Shown here piece by piece: positions 2,308-26,985 of a stretch of 26,985 nucleotides of DNA. The translations under genes were made by a program, and so were the position numbers. Each line of letters opens with the position of its first letter. Positions within the stretch are counted from its first letter, which is position 1. This stretch comes from a virus (lineage: Duplodnaviria > Heunggongvirae > Uroviricota > Caudoviricetes): the IMG/VR virus record IMGVR_UViG_2579779007_000002, one strand, 5' to 3'. The notes below the pieces were generated by a model. That model was given only the letters and a program-made list of their open reading frames with translations. It was not told the origin of the DNA and searched no databases.

Positions 2308-3795
2308 TTACAGAATGAACTGAACTTGTGCCGCGAAAATGCGGAACTGGTTAATCAGATTCGGGCCGCACAGCACATCAAGACGGTCTTTGTCGTCCTT
2401 GTTACGTGCCACATACAGCTCCTCTTTGAACGTGTCGAAATCCTCGACCAGTCCGGCGTTTTCCCATTCTTCAAACAGTGCCAGCAGCTCCGTTTTGATC
2501 ACGGATGGCGTCACCACGGCCTGACCGGTGGCAAAGCGGGTGCCATCACTTGCCAGCTTGTAGTTCGGGAATTTCTGCGTGATGCGGGTTCGCAGCGAAT
2601 AACGCAGATAACTCAGCGTGGCGATGGTATTCACGTTCAGATAAGACGGATCACTGTCACCGTACTTGTTTGTGCGGTACATCGTGATCATGCGTTCAAT
2701 CTGCATTTCACCACCATCATTCACGTTAAACGTGGAGATGCCGTCAAACAGCAGCGCATTACGTTCTGACCAGGTGAAACGATCCCCCACCGCAGGCGGC
2801 ATTCTTCCGGGTAACGTCAGCGTCTGGAGTGGACGCGCCGGGTCGATGGAAAGCGCCTGGCTGGCAACGGCACACAGGGTGGCGGCGTACAGATATGACG
2901 GTTCCGGTGCACCGGCAATCCCCATACAGGAAATCAGATGGTCATTACGGCTGACACCAAACGTGGAAATATCCCCATACGTGCCGGACAGCACTGTCAC
3001 GGCAAAGCCATCAGCCTGATTGACTGGTCCCCAGCGTTCCTGCAATTCAGTGCGTAACAGATTCAGGTTCGGTTCATCGGTATAGGGCATCACAATATAT
3101 TTGTATTGCAGATCGCCCATTCCCGCGATACTTGCGCTGATATCCGGGTTGCTGTTTTTCCCGGATGCGGCTTTGAATGCCGTGATAATCCCGTAAGGGG
3201 TGGTTTCACCCGCGTAATAGTTCCAGCGCACGTCCACGGCAGATAATGCACCCGTAAATTTTGCACTCAGAACCACATCTGCATGGGTGTCATCATCCCC
3301 GCTGTCTGCGCGAACTTCTGCCGTCACCGGTAAATCAGGCTGGCCTTTGATTCGGGCAACCAGCAGGTCAGCCAGCGCCGCTCCCGTTGCACCTGCTGCG
3401 ACAGATACCGCCAGTCGCTGACCGGCAATGTAAGTCACAAGCGAGCCGTTTTCGCCTGCCGTTCCTGACAGTGAAATTTCACCGACAGCAGCATTACCGG
3501 TGCCGTTCCCCTGCGGAATACACCACAGCTCCGCCACGCGGTTAGCGTTCAGGAATGCATCTGCCATCAGTGCCAGCATGGAACCCTGACCAAACGCCGC
3601 ACAGGCCTGTGAGCCGGAACGGATACGGACAGGCACGTTTGGTGCCGCACTGGCTTTACTTCCGCTTTGCCCGAACATCAGCACGCGCTGACGGGGTGCC
3701 GGTGTTCCGCTGACGGCATTACTGTTATCAAATTCGATATACGTCAGAGGAACGCGAACATCTGACGGGATCGCGTTAAATGAAATATCGCTCAT
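2308..3795 (-). CDS. L: contractile tail sheath protein
   Basis: 495 aa ORF with sheath-like composition, same length as Mu L, followed by the tube gene. Confidence 0.85.
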
Positions 3796-3998: not shown

Positions 3999-4530
3999 GA
4001 TCCTTTTCCTGATTCACATTGATATGTGCGGCAAATTCCGGGGTTTCGTCCGGGAATTTCCAGGTCTGCCAGTGACGCTCGTAATCATCCAGCGAATCCA
4101 TGTCCACCACGGACGGCAGCGGGGTAGTGCCACTGAACAGAACGCCGTAAAGCACCACACCGGCATTGATACGGTTGTCGTCACAAAGATTTCTGACCTG
4201 CGTCAGTCTCATCCCGGTGGTCGGGCCAAACGTCTGACCGTTAACACCGGCAATCAGTCGCTCCACAATCTGATAAATACCGGGCCGGTTTACCTGTTCC
4301 CCGTTCAGCAACTCCGCCACGACAAAAAATGCCCAGCGACTTTCAACTTCCCGACGCGTACGCCCCTCACCACAGCCCATCCATGCCAGAAATACCGATG
4401 GCGGGGCCAGAAAGAGACGGTGCACATCCTCGTTAGTCCATGTGCCGGTAAGGGGTTCCACCTGCCGCAGGGTTGCCCCAAACAACTCACGAACGCGCGC
4501 CAGCAGTGCGGCTTCGGTTTCTTCCAGCAT
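3982..4530 (-). CDS. head-tail joining / tail completion-like protein (Mu gp37 position)
   Basis: 182 aa ORF, start overlaps the stop of the upstream ORF (shared base 4530); syntenic with Mu J/K region. Confidence 0.55.
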   Translation of the reverse strand: MLEETEAALLARVRELFGATLRQVEPLTGTWTNEDVHRLFLAPPSVFLAWMGCGEGRTRREVESRWAFFVVAELLNGEQVNRPGIYQIVERLIAGVNGQTFGPTTGMRLTQVRNLCDDNRINAGVVLYGVLFSGTTPLPSVVDMDSLDDYERHWQTWKFPDETPEFAAHINVNQEKDHDAEN

Positions 4531-21764: not shown

Positions 21765-22703
21765 TTAATTACGCAGCAGCGTTGAAATATCAACGTCCAG
21801 GTCTAATTCACGGAAAGCCTGACGCAGATAATCTTCGTTAACACGCTCACCTTTACCGTGAGCCGTCATGGCTGCAAGGCGAAGTGAATGATTCAGAATG
21901 CGAAGCGCACCTGGTTTCTGCGCAATCTGCTGTAATAACTCCAGTTCTTTTTCGCCGTTAATCTGCCAGGCATCCGCAATAGCTTTTACATCGGCTTTTT
22001 TGGTTTTATTAATTGCAGTGCGCTTTGCAATACGGGAAAACAGACGGGCAAATTCAACCGTTCTGTTACCCCCCGTCATATTTGAATAAACCCGGTGATT
22101 TCCCATCAGCACAAGGCCAATACGGGTTGATTCCTGTAACAGGCGGAGTTCTTCCAGAACTTCGGCACCAAGATGATCAGCTTCGTCGATGATAACCAGC
22201 CCCTGTGTACCTTCAAGGCGACGTCGCAGGGCGCGGGAGAGCGGCCCTTTACGGCGTGGTGCGTCATTCATTCCCAGCTCAAACGCCAGTTCAGTAAGAC
22301 ATTCCAGAACGCTGGCACAGGATGGCGTAATGGTGATCATCCAGACATTGTTATTGGTGCGGCGATATTCACGGGCCGCTTCGGTTTTGCCCACACCAGG
22401 ATTGCCACATACAACAGCAATACTTTCAGTCAGGCTGGCAAAACGCATACTTGTCCAGATTTGTTTTACCGTCTGCGTTTCCACAAAGCGGGGCGGTTCA
22501 GGTAGTTCTGCAACTACATGATATTTTTCCAGCCAGCGTTGCAGCATTTGTGAAACACGCTCGTTATCCCCGTTGTACTTATCATTGATAAAACTACTGA
22601 TAGTTCCGGTAGAAAGTCCGCTCTCAAGAGCAATTTGTTTAAAGGTGGTTTCTTCATTTTCTACAAGCGTGCGCAGTCCTGCGCGAATATCGGAAATATT
22701 CAT
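21765..22703 (-). CDS. B: transposition ATPase / target DNA activator B
   Basis: 312 aa, same length as Mu B; P-loop GNPGVGKT and DEAD-like IIDEAD motifs; N-terminal helix-turn-helix. Confidence 0.9.
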   Translation of the reverse strand: MNISDIRAGLRTLVENEETTFKQIALESGLSTGTISSFINDKYNGDNERVSQMLQRWLEKYHVVAELPEPPRFVETQTVKQIWTSMRFASLTESIAVVCGNPGVGKTEAAREYRRTNNNVWMITITPSCASVLECLTELAFELGMNDAPRRKGPLSRALRRRLEGTQGLVIIDEADHLGAEVLEELRLLQESTRIGLVLMGNHRVYSNMTGGNRTVEFARLFSRIAKRTAINKTKKADVKAIADAWQINGEKELELLQQIAQKPGALRILNHSLRLAAMTAHGKGERVNEDYLRQAFRELDLDVDISTLLRN

Positions 22704-22741: not shown

Positions 22742-24835
22742 TTAAATGGCTTTTTTACGTCTGTTCTGTTCCAGAATATCCAGCGAATGATTCAGATATT
22801 CATCACGCTCAGTTTCGTATTCATCATCATGCACTTCCTCACACCTCAACGGCTGAACGGTCACCACATTACCAACAGGGCGATAAACATTATCCAGCCA
22901 GGGTTCTGTCGTTTTTTGTTCAATAACCTGAATACCTTCATCCTCAGCATCACGTATTTTTTCCTCAGCACGCTTGCGCATTCCTTTAATACGCTGCTGT
23001 TGTTTGTGATATTCAGCCGTAACAGGAAAGGCTGCGCGTTTATTGCCGTTCCATATCGCCTCACAGATAAAGCTACCGTCCTTACGGCGTACCGTAATTC
23101 GCTCGGCATCGTGAATGTCATAGCTGATAAGTACCTTGCGACCATGTTCATCACGTAGCTCTGGCGCGTAGTAAATATTGTTCAGCCACTGGATTTCGCA
23201 GCGTCTTACCGGACGCTCCACCATCGGGCGGAACATGTCACGCAGCTCAATATCACTCAGCCACTCAATTTCAGTGTCTTCTTCCGCTAAGCGTTTTTTT
23301 CTGAACTCTACCGGGCTGTAATGTTTTCCGTTTGGTTTCATCGGCAATTCAGAATGTGGGCGGTTGTTGTACCACTCCACCCCCTCACGGATAGCCTCAA
23401 TCAGTTCTGACCAGGACGGCAGCTCGCGCATTGCGGCTTTCTGACGGGCGCTCAGTGGCTTGTCCTGTTGCAGGGCATTAAACGCTGAACGCAGATCACG
23501 ATTAAGTATTCGCAACGATTCCCGGTCAGCCCCCTTGCCGAAATAGGTGCGATACCTCCTTGCTATACGCATCGGTAACGTCCGGTTCAGGCGCTCAATA
23601 ATGCCGCGTCCCTGCGGATTTCCCGCAATACCGGTGGGGTGGTTAATCCCCAGGCGGGGCAGAATCCCGACGATCTCTTTATCCAGCATATCTGCCGTTT
23701 CACCGGAACCATTATCCGAGTAATACAGGAATGGTTTTCCGTGATTGCGAATGCCGTGTTGTATCGCCCCGGCAACAGCGAACACGTTCTCCGCAAGATC
23801 AAGACTCCAGCCAACCACAAACCGGGTTCCACCGTCGATCACAAACGTAACTTCCGGTGAAAATGGACGCCCGTGAACCGGATGCGCACATTTCAGCTTC
23901 ATACCGTGACCGTCACCAATCCAGACATAATTCACCGGCATAGCTGTCCAGTCGCGGCGGGTGAATCCTTCAAGCTGACGGTATTCACTGCCGGTAACGC
24001 GCCCTTTTTGTTTCACCACTTCCGGCAGTTTTTTCATGGCATACCGGACAACATCATAGGAAGGCATCACCTCCAGCATGTATGGTTCGTCCGCATGGCG
24101 ACGCTGCCAATCAGCGACAAAATCCTCGTAGGCTTCTGACATAGGCCTGCCGTTAGCCTGACGATACTGCGCCAGAAATTCAGGCAGCCAGCTAATTTCT
24201 TCCGGTTTTATTTCGTCGCGCTTTCCTGGTGCCAGTAACAGCAATCGTTCTGCGGCATTCTGTGCTTTGTTAAACGCAGCTATCCAACGTTTGAGCGTAA
24301 TTGCGCTCAGAGTTCGCTCTTTCCCTTTACGGGCATTAGCAGTAATGACCAAAGATTCCAGGCGTTCTTCCAGGTTACCCTGAGCTAACCGCGACACAAT
24401 AAAACGTATAGCGCTGGCACAACTGAATCCCGGCTCCTGGCTAATTCGTAGAACTTCACAGACAAGAGCAATACGCGCTTCTGCAACTTTACGTTGATTT
24501 TCCGTAAGCGCATTCAGACGCTCTTCTACCAATTGTGGCGAACCGCGATATGCCTCAACAGGCTGTACAACATTTTGTTTGCGTTCACGCTTTACAGGAG
24601 GCTGGGTAGTTATCTCCTGCGGGGCGGTTGCCATCAGTTGAGCTACATGGCGCTCACGTAACGCCCGTTGTGTAACCGGAGGGAGGCAGTCGATGCTGTA
24701 TTCAATGGTTTTTGAACCCGCACGTTTGCGCCTGAAATGCTCAGATGAGGCCAGTTTCCTTATGGAATACCGCACCCCTTGCGCAGTTCCCGGCATACCT
24801 GGTAGCCCTACAAGCTCATTAACTGACACAAACAT
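22742..24835 (-). CDS. A: DDE transposase A (MuA-type)
   Basis: 697 aa; C-terminal end ...ERDEYLNHSLDILEQNRRKKAI matches my recollection of Mu A; N-terminal domain is Mu-type winged helix but divergent in sequence. Confidence 0.9.
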   Translation of the reverse strand: MFVSVNELVGLPGMPGTAQGVRYSIRKLASSEHFRRKRAGSKTIEYSIDCLPPVTQRALRERHVAQLMATAPQEITTQPPVKRERKQNVVQPVEAYRGSPQLVEERLNALTENQRKVAEARIALVCEVLRISQEPGFSCASAIRFIVSRLAQGNLEERLESLVITANARKGKERTLSAITLKRWIAAFNKAQNAAERLLLLAPGKRDEIKPEEISWLPEFLAQYRQANGRPMSEAYEDFVADWQRRHADEPYMLEVMPSYDVVRYAMKKLPEVVKQKGRVTGSEYRQLEGFTRRDWTAMPVNYVWIGDGHGMKLKCAHPVHGRPFSPEVTFVIDGGTRFVVGWSLDLAENVFAVAGAIQHGIRNHGKPFLYYSDNGSGETADMLDKEIVGILPRLGINHPTGIAGNPQGRGIIERLNRTLPMRIARRYRTYFGKGADRESLRILNRDLRSAFNALQQDKPLSARQKAAMRELPSWSELIEAIREGVEWYNNRPHSELPMKPNGKHYSPVEFRKKRLAEEDTEIEWLSDIELRDMFRPMVERPVRRCEIQWLNNIYYAPELRDEHGRKVLISYDIHDAERITVRRKDGSFICEAIWNGNKRAAFPVTAEYHKQQQRIKGMRKRAEEKIRDAEDEGIQVIEQKTTEPWLDNVYRPVGNVVTVQPLRCEEVHDDEYETERDEYLNHSLDILEQNRRKKAI

Positions 24836-24837
24836 TT

Positions 24838-25074
24838 TTATGCCACCTTACGAGCGTAACGGCTGGGCCAGATCTCCTCCGGCGCAACACCAATAGCATC
24901 AGCAATAATGCGCTCATATTTTGGGCATTTGCGGTACAGGGCATTCTTTAAAGAATCCTGGTTTAAACCGGCTTCAATGGACAGAGAGCGTAAAGTAAAA
25001 CCTTTTACATGCACCGCCGCGACAACATGCGCGGGGTGCCAGTCCTGTTTAACAACTTCATTTATAGACATCAT
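24838..25074 (-). CDS. ner: Ner-like early transcriptional regulator
   Basis: Start set at the MM pair (25074) preceded by AAGGA, giving ~78 aa; contains DWH...IIA-A....PE.IWPSRY pattern shared with Mu Ner. Track ORF extends to 25146 (102 aa). Confidence 0.7.
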   Translation of the reverse strand: MMSINEVVKQDWHPAHVVAAVHVKGFTLRSLSIEAGLNQDSLKNALYRKCPKYERIIADAIGVAPEEIWPSRYARKVA

Positions 25075-25254
25075 TCGTTTATCCTTAAAAGTTATCTGTG
25101 CGGATAACACCGCCGGATAATCTCTGCGGATAAAGTATTGATCCACATGTGGTGCATGTAAAGCAAAAATTTGATTTTCTTTTGCCTGATATGGATCGAT
25201 TGTGTTTTCTATTGAAATTATCCTTTTGCATCAATTAGATAAGAGGAAAGAAAA
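25075..25254. promoter_or_regulatory. divergent early/repressor promoter and operator region
   Basis: Three direct (G/C)CGGATAA repeats at 25100, 25113 and 25126 (13-bp phasing); inverted repeat GTTATC-n6-GATAAC at 25091-25108; IHF-like AATCAAATTTTTG (minus strand) at 25164-25176; TTGAAA-17 bp-TTAGAT upstream of the repressor start. Confidence 0.6.
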
Positions 25255-25800
25255 ATGGATAAGCTGAAAGGAAAGTCACTTTCTTTGCCAGAAGTGACAA
25301 AAGAAAGTATCCCGGAGCGTTTGAGAGAATTAATTGGAAAAAGAAGTGTAAGGGCTGCTGCGAAAGATTGGGGGTTGTCGTTTTCCACTTTAAACAATTA
25401 CCTGACGCGAGGTACTGAACCTTCACTCAGTGTGGCTCGGCAGATAGCTGCAATTGAAGGGGTTACTATCGAATGGATATGTGGATCACATGATGATTCA
25501 CATGAGAATCACCCAATTTCAACTAACACGCATAATGAGAATACAAAACTCATTATGAACATCATTAACGCCTTGGATGCAAAGGATATTGAGCGACTAT
25601 CTAAGACTCTTGCCCTCAATGGTGCTAAGTATCTGACTCAAATGTTGGAACCCGAAAATCAAGGCTTACTGCGTCTTGAAGGACGAAAACGTGTCGCCGC
25701 GCTGCTATTAGATGATTTACCTGATGAGCGTATCAGAGAGATTTTGGAAGAAATTGAGAGCAGCAAACTCTCAAGTAGTGTAAAATCGAGAGCGGGCTAG
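25255..25800 (+). CDS. prophage repressor, XRE-type helix-turn-helix
   Basis: 181 aa, divergent from ner/A/B as for Mu c; motif KDWGLSFSTLNNYLTRGTEPSLSVARQIAAIEGVTIEWI resembles Cro/cI-type helix-turn-helix rather than a Mu-type winged helix. Confidence 0.65.
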   Translation: MDKLKGKSLSLPEVTKESIPERLRELIGKRSVRAAAKDWGLSFSTLNNYLTRGTEPSLSVARQIAAIEGVTIEWICGSHDDSHENHPISTNTHNENTKLIMNIINALDAKDIERLSKTLALNGAKYLTQMLEPENQGLLRLEGRKRVAALLLDDLPDERIREILEEIESSKLSSSVKSRAG

Positions 25801-25854
25801 TTCAATTAGCCCGCAGTGAACAGATTTTGAAGGCATTTAAAATGCTAAAATTGC

Positions 25855-26040
25855 AGTAACGCGTAGTATCAAATATTTTTTCGTTTTTAGCTTTCTTTGC
25901 GATGGTAGTATCAAATCGCATGTTGTGCGCATAACACTGTTTTATGTCATAACTGTTTGTTTTATCCCATCAAATCCCGTTTAATCCACTTTCCTCCCGG
26001 ATTTTTCACCAGTATCAAATAATTTACCTCTCTATATTCA
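25855..26040. repeat. prophage left-end terminal repeats (putative transposase binding sites L3, L2, L1)
   Basis: AGTATCAAAT at 25865-25874, 25907-25916 and 26011-26020, all in one orientation; reverse complement of 25990-26010 (...AAAAATCCGGGAGGA...) resembles the Mu left end. Confidence 0.55.
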
Positions 26041-26985
26041 GCTCAGCAGCGCGACCAACAGCACATCTGAAATGCTGGCGGCAACGCCAAAGTCGGTAAA
26101 GGCAGCCTATGACCTTGCTAACGGGAAATATACCGCTCAGGACGCTACGACAGCACAAAAAGGAATTGTCCAGCTCAGTAGTGCAACCAACAGCGCATCT
26201 GAAACGCTTGCCGCGACACCGAAAGCAGTGAAAGCAGCTAATGATAATGCGAATGGTCGGGTACCTTCTGCCCGTAAGGTGAATGGTAAGGCGCTTTCAG
26301 CGGATATAACACTGACGCCGAAAGATATTGGTACGCTTAACTCAACAACAATGTCATTCAGCGGTGGAGCTGGTTGGTTCAAATTAGCAACGGTAACCAT
26401 GCCACAGGCGAGTTCTGTTGTTTCAATTACGTTGATTGGTGGCTCGGGATTTAACGTGGGGTCACCTCAACAGGCAGGTATATCTGAACTTGTTTTGCGT
26501 GCAGGTAATGGTAATCCGAAGGGGATTACTGGTGCTTTATGGCAGCGCACATCGACAGGGTTTACAAATTTTGCCTGGGTCAATACATCTGGTGATACTT
26601 ACGATATTTACGTTGCAATCGGAAATTATGCGACAGGTGTAAATATTCAATGGGATTATACCAGTAATGCCAGCGTGACTATTCATACGTCACCAGCATA
26701 TTCTGCTAATAAGCCGGAAGGGTTAACGGACGGTACAGTTTATTCACTCTATACGCCATCAGAGCAGTTTTATCCGCCTGGCGCACCAATCCCGTGGCCA
26801 TCAGATACCGTTCCGTCTGGTTATGCCCTGATGCAGGGGCAGACTTTTGACAAATCTGCTTACCCGAAACTTGCAACCGCTTATCCGTCAGGCGTGATCC
26901 CTGATATGCGTGGCTGGACGATTAAGGGCAAACCTGCCAGTGGTCGGGCCGTATTGTCTCAGGAACAGGACGGCATTAAATCGCA
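25985..26985 (+). pseudogene. side tail fibre gene, 5'-truncated 3' fragment (runs off window end)
   Basis: Frame open from 25985 to window end with no start codon; from 26036 encodes two tandem QLSSATNS(T/A)[14 protein letters not shown] repeats and ...[68 protein letters not shown], typical of lambda Stf-like fibres. Not in the ORF track because it has no start. Confidence 0.65.

Follow-up and report, generated by a model that had tools for sequence, protein, structure and literature searches.

Terminal repeats of a Mu-like prophage as probable transposase-binding sites of an Sp18-like transposition and immunity module

Introduction

Transposable Mu-like phages are a known and common kind of phage, and Mu itself serves as the reference for DDE transposition, in which cleavage at terminal CA dinucleotides and joining to target phosphates 5 bp apart are treated as hallmarks (PMC3562280, PMC3145075); insertions of DMS3-type phages are also treated as 5-bp duplications (PMC11406979), and the IIIbeta tail of the Mu transposase, MuA, contacts MuB and ClpX (PMC3562280). 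Two further groups are close to the prophage studied here. The Mu_JNE122137-type prophage is described as Sp18-like in PMC10132054, and the Yersinia phages vB_YpM_5 and vB_YpM_6 are isolated, plaque-forming phages which the available text of PMC10434027 treats as ordinary Mu relatives, with their ends and their differing transposase unmentioned there.

We analysed a 26,985-bp stretch of viral DNA (hereafter the window) in which an original prediction, made from the letters alone, had proposed a divergent Mu-type left end marked by three copies of the 10-mer AGTATCAAAT. The end of the prophage, its repeats, its transposase and its target duplication were compared with those of Mu and of relatives inserted elsewhere.

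Results

The prophage and its exact end

The window contains the left 26 kb of a Mu-like prophage inserted in the fibre gene of another prophage, with the right end outside the window (Table 1); this follows from the identity to the fibre gene to the right of about position 26037 together with the Mu early-gene order to the left. Read on the minus strand, the early region has the order of Mu (repressor, Ner-type gene, transposase, MuB-type AAA+ protein), and many E. coli genomes have intact genes with 99.6% identity to the interrupted fibre gene. At 26041-26260 (plus strand) the fibre gene codes for tandem peptide repeats, and the prophage landed at the start of one unit.

Table 1. Features of the left end, the early region and the host junction (positions in the window; element nt are counted inward from the last base of the prophage).
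Feature	Position	Strand	Description
B gene	21765-22703	-	312 aa, Mu-type; AAA+ and Phage-MuB_C domains
Transposase A gene	22742-24835	-	697 aa; 25% identical to MuA; Mu-transpos_C domain
Mosaic joint inside the transposase gene	22742-22832	-	last 30 codons of A identical to MuA (DDEYETERDEYLNHSLDILEQNRRKKAI)
ner-like gene	24838-25074	-	78 aa; PF13693, 88.5 bits
Three (G/C)CGGATAA direct repeats between repressor gene and ner	25100-25133	+	GCGGATAA / CCGGATAA / GCGGATAA, 13 bp apart
Repressor gene	25255-25800	+	181 aa, XRE/HTH_3 type; PF01381; phrog_3037 (transcriptional repressor)
L3, putative transposase-binding site	25864-25885	-	element nt 152-173; core 25865-25874
L2, putative transposase-binding site	25906-25927	-	element nt 110-131; core 25907-25916
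43-bp block in the L1-L2 spacer	25964-26006	-	86% identical to Mu nt 25-67
L1, terminal 22-bp putative transposase-binding site	26010-26031	-	element nt 6-27, AGAGGTAAATTATTTGATACTG; core 26011-26020
Terminal dinucleotide of the element	26035-26036		TA on both strands; transferred strand ends ...TATA-3'
TTCA, host target bases	26037-26040		predicted one copy of the 4-bp target duplication; other copy beyond the window
3' part of a lambdoid side-tail-fibre gene of another prophage	26037-26985	+	interrupted by the insertion

Comparison of the junctions at independent insertions (at ppsR, mscM, glpT, rlmB, next to patD and elsewhere) with an empty fibre gene (L002) places the last base of the prophage at 26036. 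The match to the window goes no further than this base (...CTCTCTATA) in three near-identical prophages, whose kind has a left end 99% identical and sits at other E. coli loci, and in three relatives that are more distant. Similarity to relatives ends between 26036 and 26039, most often at 26036, with chance extensions of one to three bases, and the relatives, when read directly, all have ...AATTTACCTCTCTATA and then diverge. The empty site in the intact fibre gene reads ...GGGATAGTTCAGCTCAGC, and its match to the window begins at 26037 (TTCAGCTC...). In the orientation of Mu, the left end starts with 5'-TATAGAGAGGTAAATTATTTGATACT. The last base had been expected within 26030-26041, where it does lie, and most probably at the CA of 26039-26040, which had to be given up: independent insertions diverge before that dinucleotide, after 26036, and the empty fibre gene already contains it, so that it belongs to the host DNA. 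A BLAST match of the fibre gene that starts at 26034 proved to be an artefact of gapped over-extension (ATA-TTCAG versus ATAGTTCAG). The right and left junctions of the window prophage itself had no match in the viral and metagenome collections, and a scan of viral contigs for the right end returned only short fragments, none with both ends. We predict that its right junction has ...GATAGTTCA adjoining TAAAGCGCGC, i.e., ...GGGATAGTTCA followed by TAAAGCGCGCAAAATCATTTGATACC.

Three repeats at the left end

The original prediction of the 10-mer AGTATCAAAT at 25865, 25907 and 26011 is confirmed, with exactly three copies in the 26,985-bp window, all of them on the plus strand, as compared with a mean of 0.01 exact matches per shuffle in 100 dinucleotide-preserving shuffles, none of which reached three. 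The 12-mer GTAGTATCAAAT is present at two of the three copies. The 7-mer core, TTGATAC, occurs seven times in the 27-kb window (2.5 expected), and three of these seven cores are clustered within 153 bp, inside the last 172 bp of the element. Read inward from the element end, AGTATCAAAT becomes ATTTGATACT, and its copies, counted from the true end at 26036, occupy nt 17-26, 121-130 and 163-172, close to the distances first quoted (20-30, 120-135 and 165-175 bp). They are very probably the conserved cores of three 22-bp putative transposase-binding sites (L1, L2 and L3, Table 1), the boundaries of L2 and L3 being set by registration on the core, with L1 taken as 6-27, and not by direct measurement. 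An 11-bp inverted repeat (GCGGGCTAGTT / AATTAGCCCGC) lies nearby at 25792-25814, over the stop codon of the repressor gene; it looks like a terminator stem but has no T-run after it.

The right end and the layout of Mu

The right end is known from relatives: read inward, it is 5'-TAAAGCGCGCAAAATCATTTGATACCGTTTTGAATTTTTTTTGATACCACCC...TTATTTGATACTAATC in FDAARGOS_1059, O111:H2 12A, JCKP02, WS1933D, S6 and TD225-C4, and also in the Yersinia phage vB_YpM_5. Inverted copies of the repeat, which the original prediction had proposed to look for at the other end, are present there, with cores starting at nt 19, 41 and 76, as compared with 19, 123 and 165 at the left end, and all of them point inward. 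The first two right-end cores are 22 bp apart and thus in phase like R1 and R2 of Mu. The core stands at nt 19 from both termini in five lineages, which have transposases of 57-100% identity and flanking bases that diverge, and the R2 core at nt 41 is also kept in further lineages (TD225-C4, the LC727895 element, Kp4866-3 and Tongde). A consensus of 24 sites reads approximately ..AAAT.ATTTGATACY.

For comparison, the Mu ends were scanned with the 22-bp MuA consensus YGTTTCAYTNNAARYRCGAAAA, against which L1 (6-27), L3 (151-172), R1 (6-27), R2 (28-49) and the inverted R3 (56-77) reach at least 17/22; L2 of Mu was placed at 111-132 by its RCGAAAR box. The three left-end sites of the window type lie within 1 bp of those of Mu, which bears out the predicted L1/L2/L3-like spacing of a Mu-type left end. 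Both types, and also D108 and SfMu, have three sites per end, with L1 starting 5 bp from the terminus and L2 and L3 about 100 bp deeper; in the window type as in Mu, R1 and R2 adjoin each other as units of 22 bp, a pac-like block lies between L1 and L2 in both, and the gene order c-ner-A-B is common to both. However, R3 is direct in the window type and inverted in Mu, the repressor is of XRE type and not of the Mu c type, the transposase is only 25% identical to MuA, and the site sequence is unrelated to that of Mu, D108 and SfMu: no position in either window-type end scores 17/22 or more with the MuA consensus, and the L1 sequence which Mu has in common with D108 and SfMu is absent from the window. 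The repeats therefore do differ from the consensus of Mu and D108, as had been claimed for Mu. By its position at the host junction, with repressor, ner, A and B following inward, and by three sites per end that are inverted between the ends (the right end as known from relatives), this is an end of a Mu-type transposable phage; on consensus, termini (TA...TA here, TG...CA in Mu) and target duplication (4 bp here, 5 bp in Mu), window-type ends fall outside the att group of Mu, D108 and SfMu.

An origin of the repeats by chance, as low-complexity repeats of an AT-rich region, or their being part of a packaging signal is hardly credible. The region is indeed AT-rich and the pac signal of Mu is located in the same left-end region, but the shuffled sequences yield next to no exact matches, the position of the core is kept in five lineages and at both ends, whereas pac is needed at one end only, and the separate Mu-like block of 43 bp between L1 and L2 is the better candidate for pac. 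This block is probably the pac signal, kept along with the Mu head genes, given that the pac of Mu maps to roughly nt 32-58. A pac-like motif (CCGGGARG..ATTGGAT..CGGGA) is also found in Kp4866-3, VL40 and Tongde, and is absent from the Sp18-like element, whose head genes diverge.

TA termini and a 4-bp target duplication

In all window-type insertions the left end starts with TATAGAGAGG and the right end finishes with GCGCGCTTTA. The terminal 5'-TG...CA-3' of the original prediction is absent, and the lineage has TA...TA instead. In six of six insertions the target duplication is 4 bp long and lies immediately outside TA...TA, and the fifth base never matches: CGCG at ppsR, TAAG at mscM, AGCC at glpT, TTAA next to patD, GATA at rlmB and TTCA at the VL40 insertion. 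Three of these six (ppsR, mscM and glpT) were checked against the empty sites of K-12. A duplication of 5 bp obtained by shifting the boundaries by ±1 was tried for the same three and works in none of them, because the K-12 empty sites lack the T and A beside the 4-bp repeats. As a control, the same procedure applied to a genuine Mu-type prophage in strain PSS-15 gave TG...CA and a 5-bp duplication (CCGCG). For the window prophage itself we predict TTCA (26037-26040) as the duplication; it is a prediction since the right end of the window prophage is not seen. MLV integrase also makes a 4-bp stagger, so the length of the stagger varies within the superfamily.

In GenBank LC727895, the depositors annotate a 4-bp 'duplication due to insertion of Mu_JNE122137' (AGAG) at 1590-1593 and 40931-40934, on which the available text of PMC10132054 is silent. 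Literature searches for a 4-bp duplication in a Mu-like phage returned no relevant paper; the only record of it is this GenBank feature. FDAARGOS_1059 (NZ_CP066032.1; 1680-1730 and 38900-38960) carries a near-identical prophage without a target duplication. One of its neighbours is a truncated gene for an SDR-family oxidoreductase, and the other, beside ycjO, is a truncated gene for a carbohydrate ABC permease, which suggests a deletion adjacent to the prophage; as its two flanks are different genes, it was left out of the duplication test.

The transposase and the mosaic

The transposase A of the window can be aligned with MuA over its full length (BLASTP E = 8e-26), with about 25% identity upstream of the mosaic joint, and its residues D308, D374 and E414 align with the DDE triad of MuA. 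Both proteins match phrog_310 (about 1e-199). Among the Pfam models, PF09299 (Mu-transpos_C) scores 66.7 bits with A, HTH_Tnp_Mu_1 and rve are weakly detected, and neither the Ibeta model of MuA (HTH_Tnp_Mu_2) nor DDE_2 is detected at E <= 0.01; the evidence for homology of the end-binding region to Ibeta/Igamma of MuA is therefore the BLASTP alignment over the full length together with the PHROG profile. The N-terminus of A resembles the Ialpha domain of MuA (PDB 1tns). On these matches, A is assigned to the MuA family in the broad sense (phrog_310), and it lies outside the narrow definition by Pfam DDE_2 plus HTH_Tnp_Mu_2.

From element nt 3205 (window 22832) inward, the prophage follows Mu from Mu nt 3229 with 99.6% identity, first through the last 30 codons of A, which correspond to the IIIbeta tail of MuA, and then through B. 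Over window 1-22800, identity to Mu is 97.9% across 91% of the length, and D108 and SfMu are similar. Judged by these identities, the prophage is a Muvirus in its backbone (early, lysis, head and tail genes), and the 'distinct Mu-family lineage' of the original prediction was an overstatement, since this part is about 98% identical to Mu and D108 and only the transposition/immunity module and the ends are foreign. The phage as a whole is a mosaic of a backbone about 98% identical to Mu and an Sp18-like transposition/immunity module; on the same comparison, this module has replaced the repressor and ner of the Muvirus, residues 1 to about 667 of its A protein and its two ends. The marks by which we recognise the Sp18-like module were all found: TTGATAC at nt 19 of both ends, YA-3' termini, a 4-bp duplication and a transposase at least 57% identical. 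The three direct repeats between the repressor gene and ner (Table 1) are probably the operator and, by analogy with Mu, may also form the transposition enhancer.

A natural exchange of end specificity

A scan of species genomes with the transposase returned only two loci, one in Shigella flexneri SFBU1023 and one in an E. coli; both of them, and also E. coli VL40, encode a related transposase. The transposase of VL40/SFBU1023 is 98% identical to the window transposase over residues 201-640 and 37-68% identical over residues 1-200, with the lowest identity, 40-48%, at residues 121-200. The six sites keep their positions in VL40/SFBU1023, but their core is TTCAAGATAA, found at right-end nt 18-26 and 40-48 and in three copies at the left end. 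VL40 is thus like the window prophage in its TA...TA termini, 4-bp duplication, site positions and catalytic core, and unlike it in the repeat core, residues 1-200 of A, ner and the repressor. No other evidence at hand speaks as strongly as this exchange for a reading of the repeats by the N-terminal part of the transposase, and residues 1 to about 200 of A probably carry the end specificity. The claim that the sites go with a different transposase specificity is upheld in two ways, by the divergence of A from MuA and by the variation of the core with the A N-terminus in VL40/SFBU1023. Repressor and ner were exchanged along with this N-terminus, so that co-variation by itself does not tell A from these two as the protein that binds.

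This joint replacement could point to the repeats as operators for the phage repressor or Ner, controlling the accessibility of the end or its transcription, and the repressor of Mu is reported to bind the Mu ends weakly. However, the repeats are found away from the divergent promoters, on the left downstream of the repressor gene and otherwise at the far right end, the intergenic region has repeats of its own with a different sequence (GCGGATAA among them, three in all), and three sites per end, the outermost of them 5 bp from the cleavage point, form the layout of transposase sites; a role as operators is therefore very improbable. It might also be considered that an architectural protein of the host, IHF, HU or Fis, binds the repeats and bends the end, because TATCAA is similar to the IHF consensus WATCAANNNNTTR in its first half and because HU is used in the L1-L2 spacer of the Mu ends. 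The IHF consensus is not completed in any of the three copies, all of which lack the TTR half, and a host site would not be expected to turn into TTCAAGATAA as the A N-terminus changes within the same host species; the six copies, which keep fixed distances to the two termini and a phase of 22 bp, again form the transposase-site layout of Mu, which makes host-protein sites extremely improbable. Even when chance or packaging, operators and host-protein sites are taken together, they remain an unlikely explanation of the repeats.

Relatives and spread

Insertions were found at many unrelated loci: in the fibre gene, ppsR, mscM, glpT, rlmB and an Stx phage, and beside patD and a T6SS vgr gene. 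Seven different insertion loci show transposition-like random insertion. Identical or near-identical transposases are encoded on hundreds of contigs of E. coli, Salmonella, Shigella and Yersinia, and the best 120 transposase homologues are 93-100% identical. More distant transposases are those of the Sp18-like element of LC727895 (79% identical to the window transposase), the Klebsiella phage Kp4866-3 (57%) and the Yersinia phage Tongde (58%). The Pseudomonas phages of D3112/DMS3 type and the retroviral integrases are comparable in the rve-like DDE core plus Mu-transpos_C, with a transposase identity of 30% to the DMS3 group.

Compared with the Sp18-like EHEC/STEC prophages, represented by Mu_JNE122137 in the Stx phage LC727895, the window prophage has the same TTGATAC core (nt 19 in L; nt 19, 41 and 76 in R), the same right terminus (TA) and the same length of duplication, as annotated there. 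Unlike the window prophage, Mu_JNE122137 has a left terminus of TG (TG...TA), L2 at nt 114, structural genes that are only 64-72% identical at the DNA level, no Mu-like pac block and a C-terminus of A which is not of Mu type. The Yersinia phages vB_YpM_5 and vB_YpM_6 are the same hybrid as the window prophage, with a transposase 98.9% identical and the same L and R ends and repeats, except that their L terminus reads TATGAAGAGG; as both form plaques, this combination of ends and transposase works. The record of vB_YpM_5 (MT374853.1), a 'circular complete genome', joins the phage ends at 4229-4315 through about 87 bp of unrelated DNA, presumably packaged host flank, in which case the record is no true circle. 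In the Tongde record, too, host DNA flanks the phage, with a fragment of glyS and an IS ATP-binding gene. In NZ_CP035860.1 and NZ_CM177011.1, the same ends and transposase types stand on a non-Mu backbone with different terminase, head and tail, from which we conclude that the transposition module moves between backbones.

Discussion

It is highly likely that the AGTATCAAAT copies are the cores of the sites L1-L3 for the prophage's own transposase, in a Muvirus with an exchanged Sp18-like transposition/immunity module. What was observed comprises the exact end with its TA termini, the repeats and their geometry, the duplication of 4 bp, the mosaic and the co-variation of the core with the A N-terminus; on this ground a mechanism may be proposed, by analogy with Mu, for the binding of A to the sites, the subdomain responsible, the chemistry and the contacts with partner proteins. 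In such a mechanism, the N-terminal DNA-binding region of A would bind the three sites at each end (L1-L3 and R1-R3), and the ends would be synapsed, probably with the help of the operator/enhancer region at 25100-25133. Nicks would then be made behind the terminal ...TA-3' of the left end (26036) and of the right end, and the 3'-OH ends would be joined to target phosphates 4 bp apart. The Mu-type tail of 30 residues at the end of A may couple this reaction to the unchanged MuB for target capture and to ClpX for the hand-over to replication.

The end anatomy (TTGATAC sites and TA-3' termini), the 4-bp duplication, the graft via the IIIbeta tail and the second end specificity appear to be undescribed, and we found no paper on a 4-bp joining clade, TA-3' cleavage, a graft of the module or two end specificities. 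On balance we favour, with some reserve, the existence of an enterobacterial clade of Mu-family transposases which joins the element ends to target phosphates 4 bp apart, not 5, and cleaves after TA-3' as readily as after CA-3', comprising the window, Sp18 and VL40 types, for which the duplication length was examined, and probably the Tongde and Kp4866 types. In this clade the window type would be a natural chimera, its enzyme grafted on an authentic Mu genome with the 30-residue MuA tail kept, and there would be at least two interchangeable specificities (TTGATAC and TTCAAGATAA).

These prophages are present in hundreds of E. coli, Salmonella, Shigella and Yersinia assemblies, often inside other prophages, and programs that call insertions by 5-bp duplications or by TG/CA ends will mis-place them. 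The two orthogonal end specificities could serve as mini-Mu tools that do not cross-react. A backbone about 98% identical to Mu, with an authentic MuB but with other sites, TA-3' termini and a 4-bp stagger, is a ready-made comparison with Mu, and it opens the questions of what sets the length of the stagger, how far the active site tolerates a different penultimate base and how little of MuA is needed for coupling to MuB and ClpX. The chimera, if true, would mean that end recognition, stagger length and the choice of the terminal bases are separated from the coupling to MuB and ClpX.
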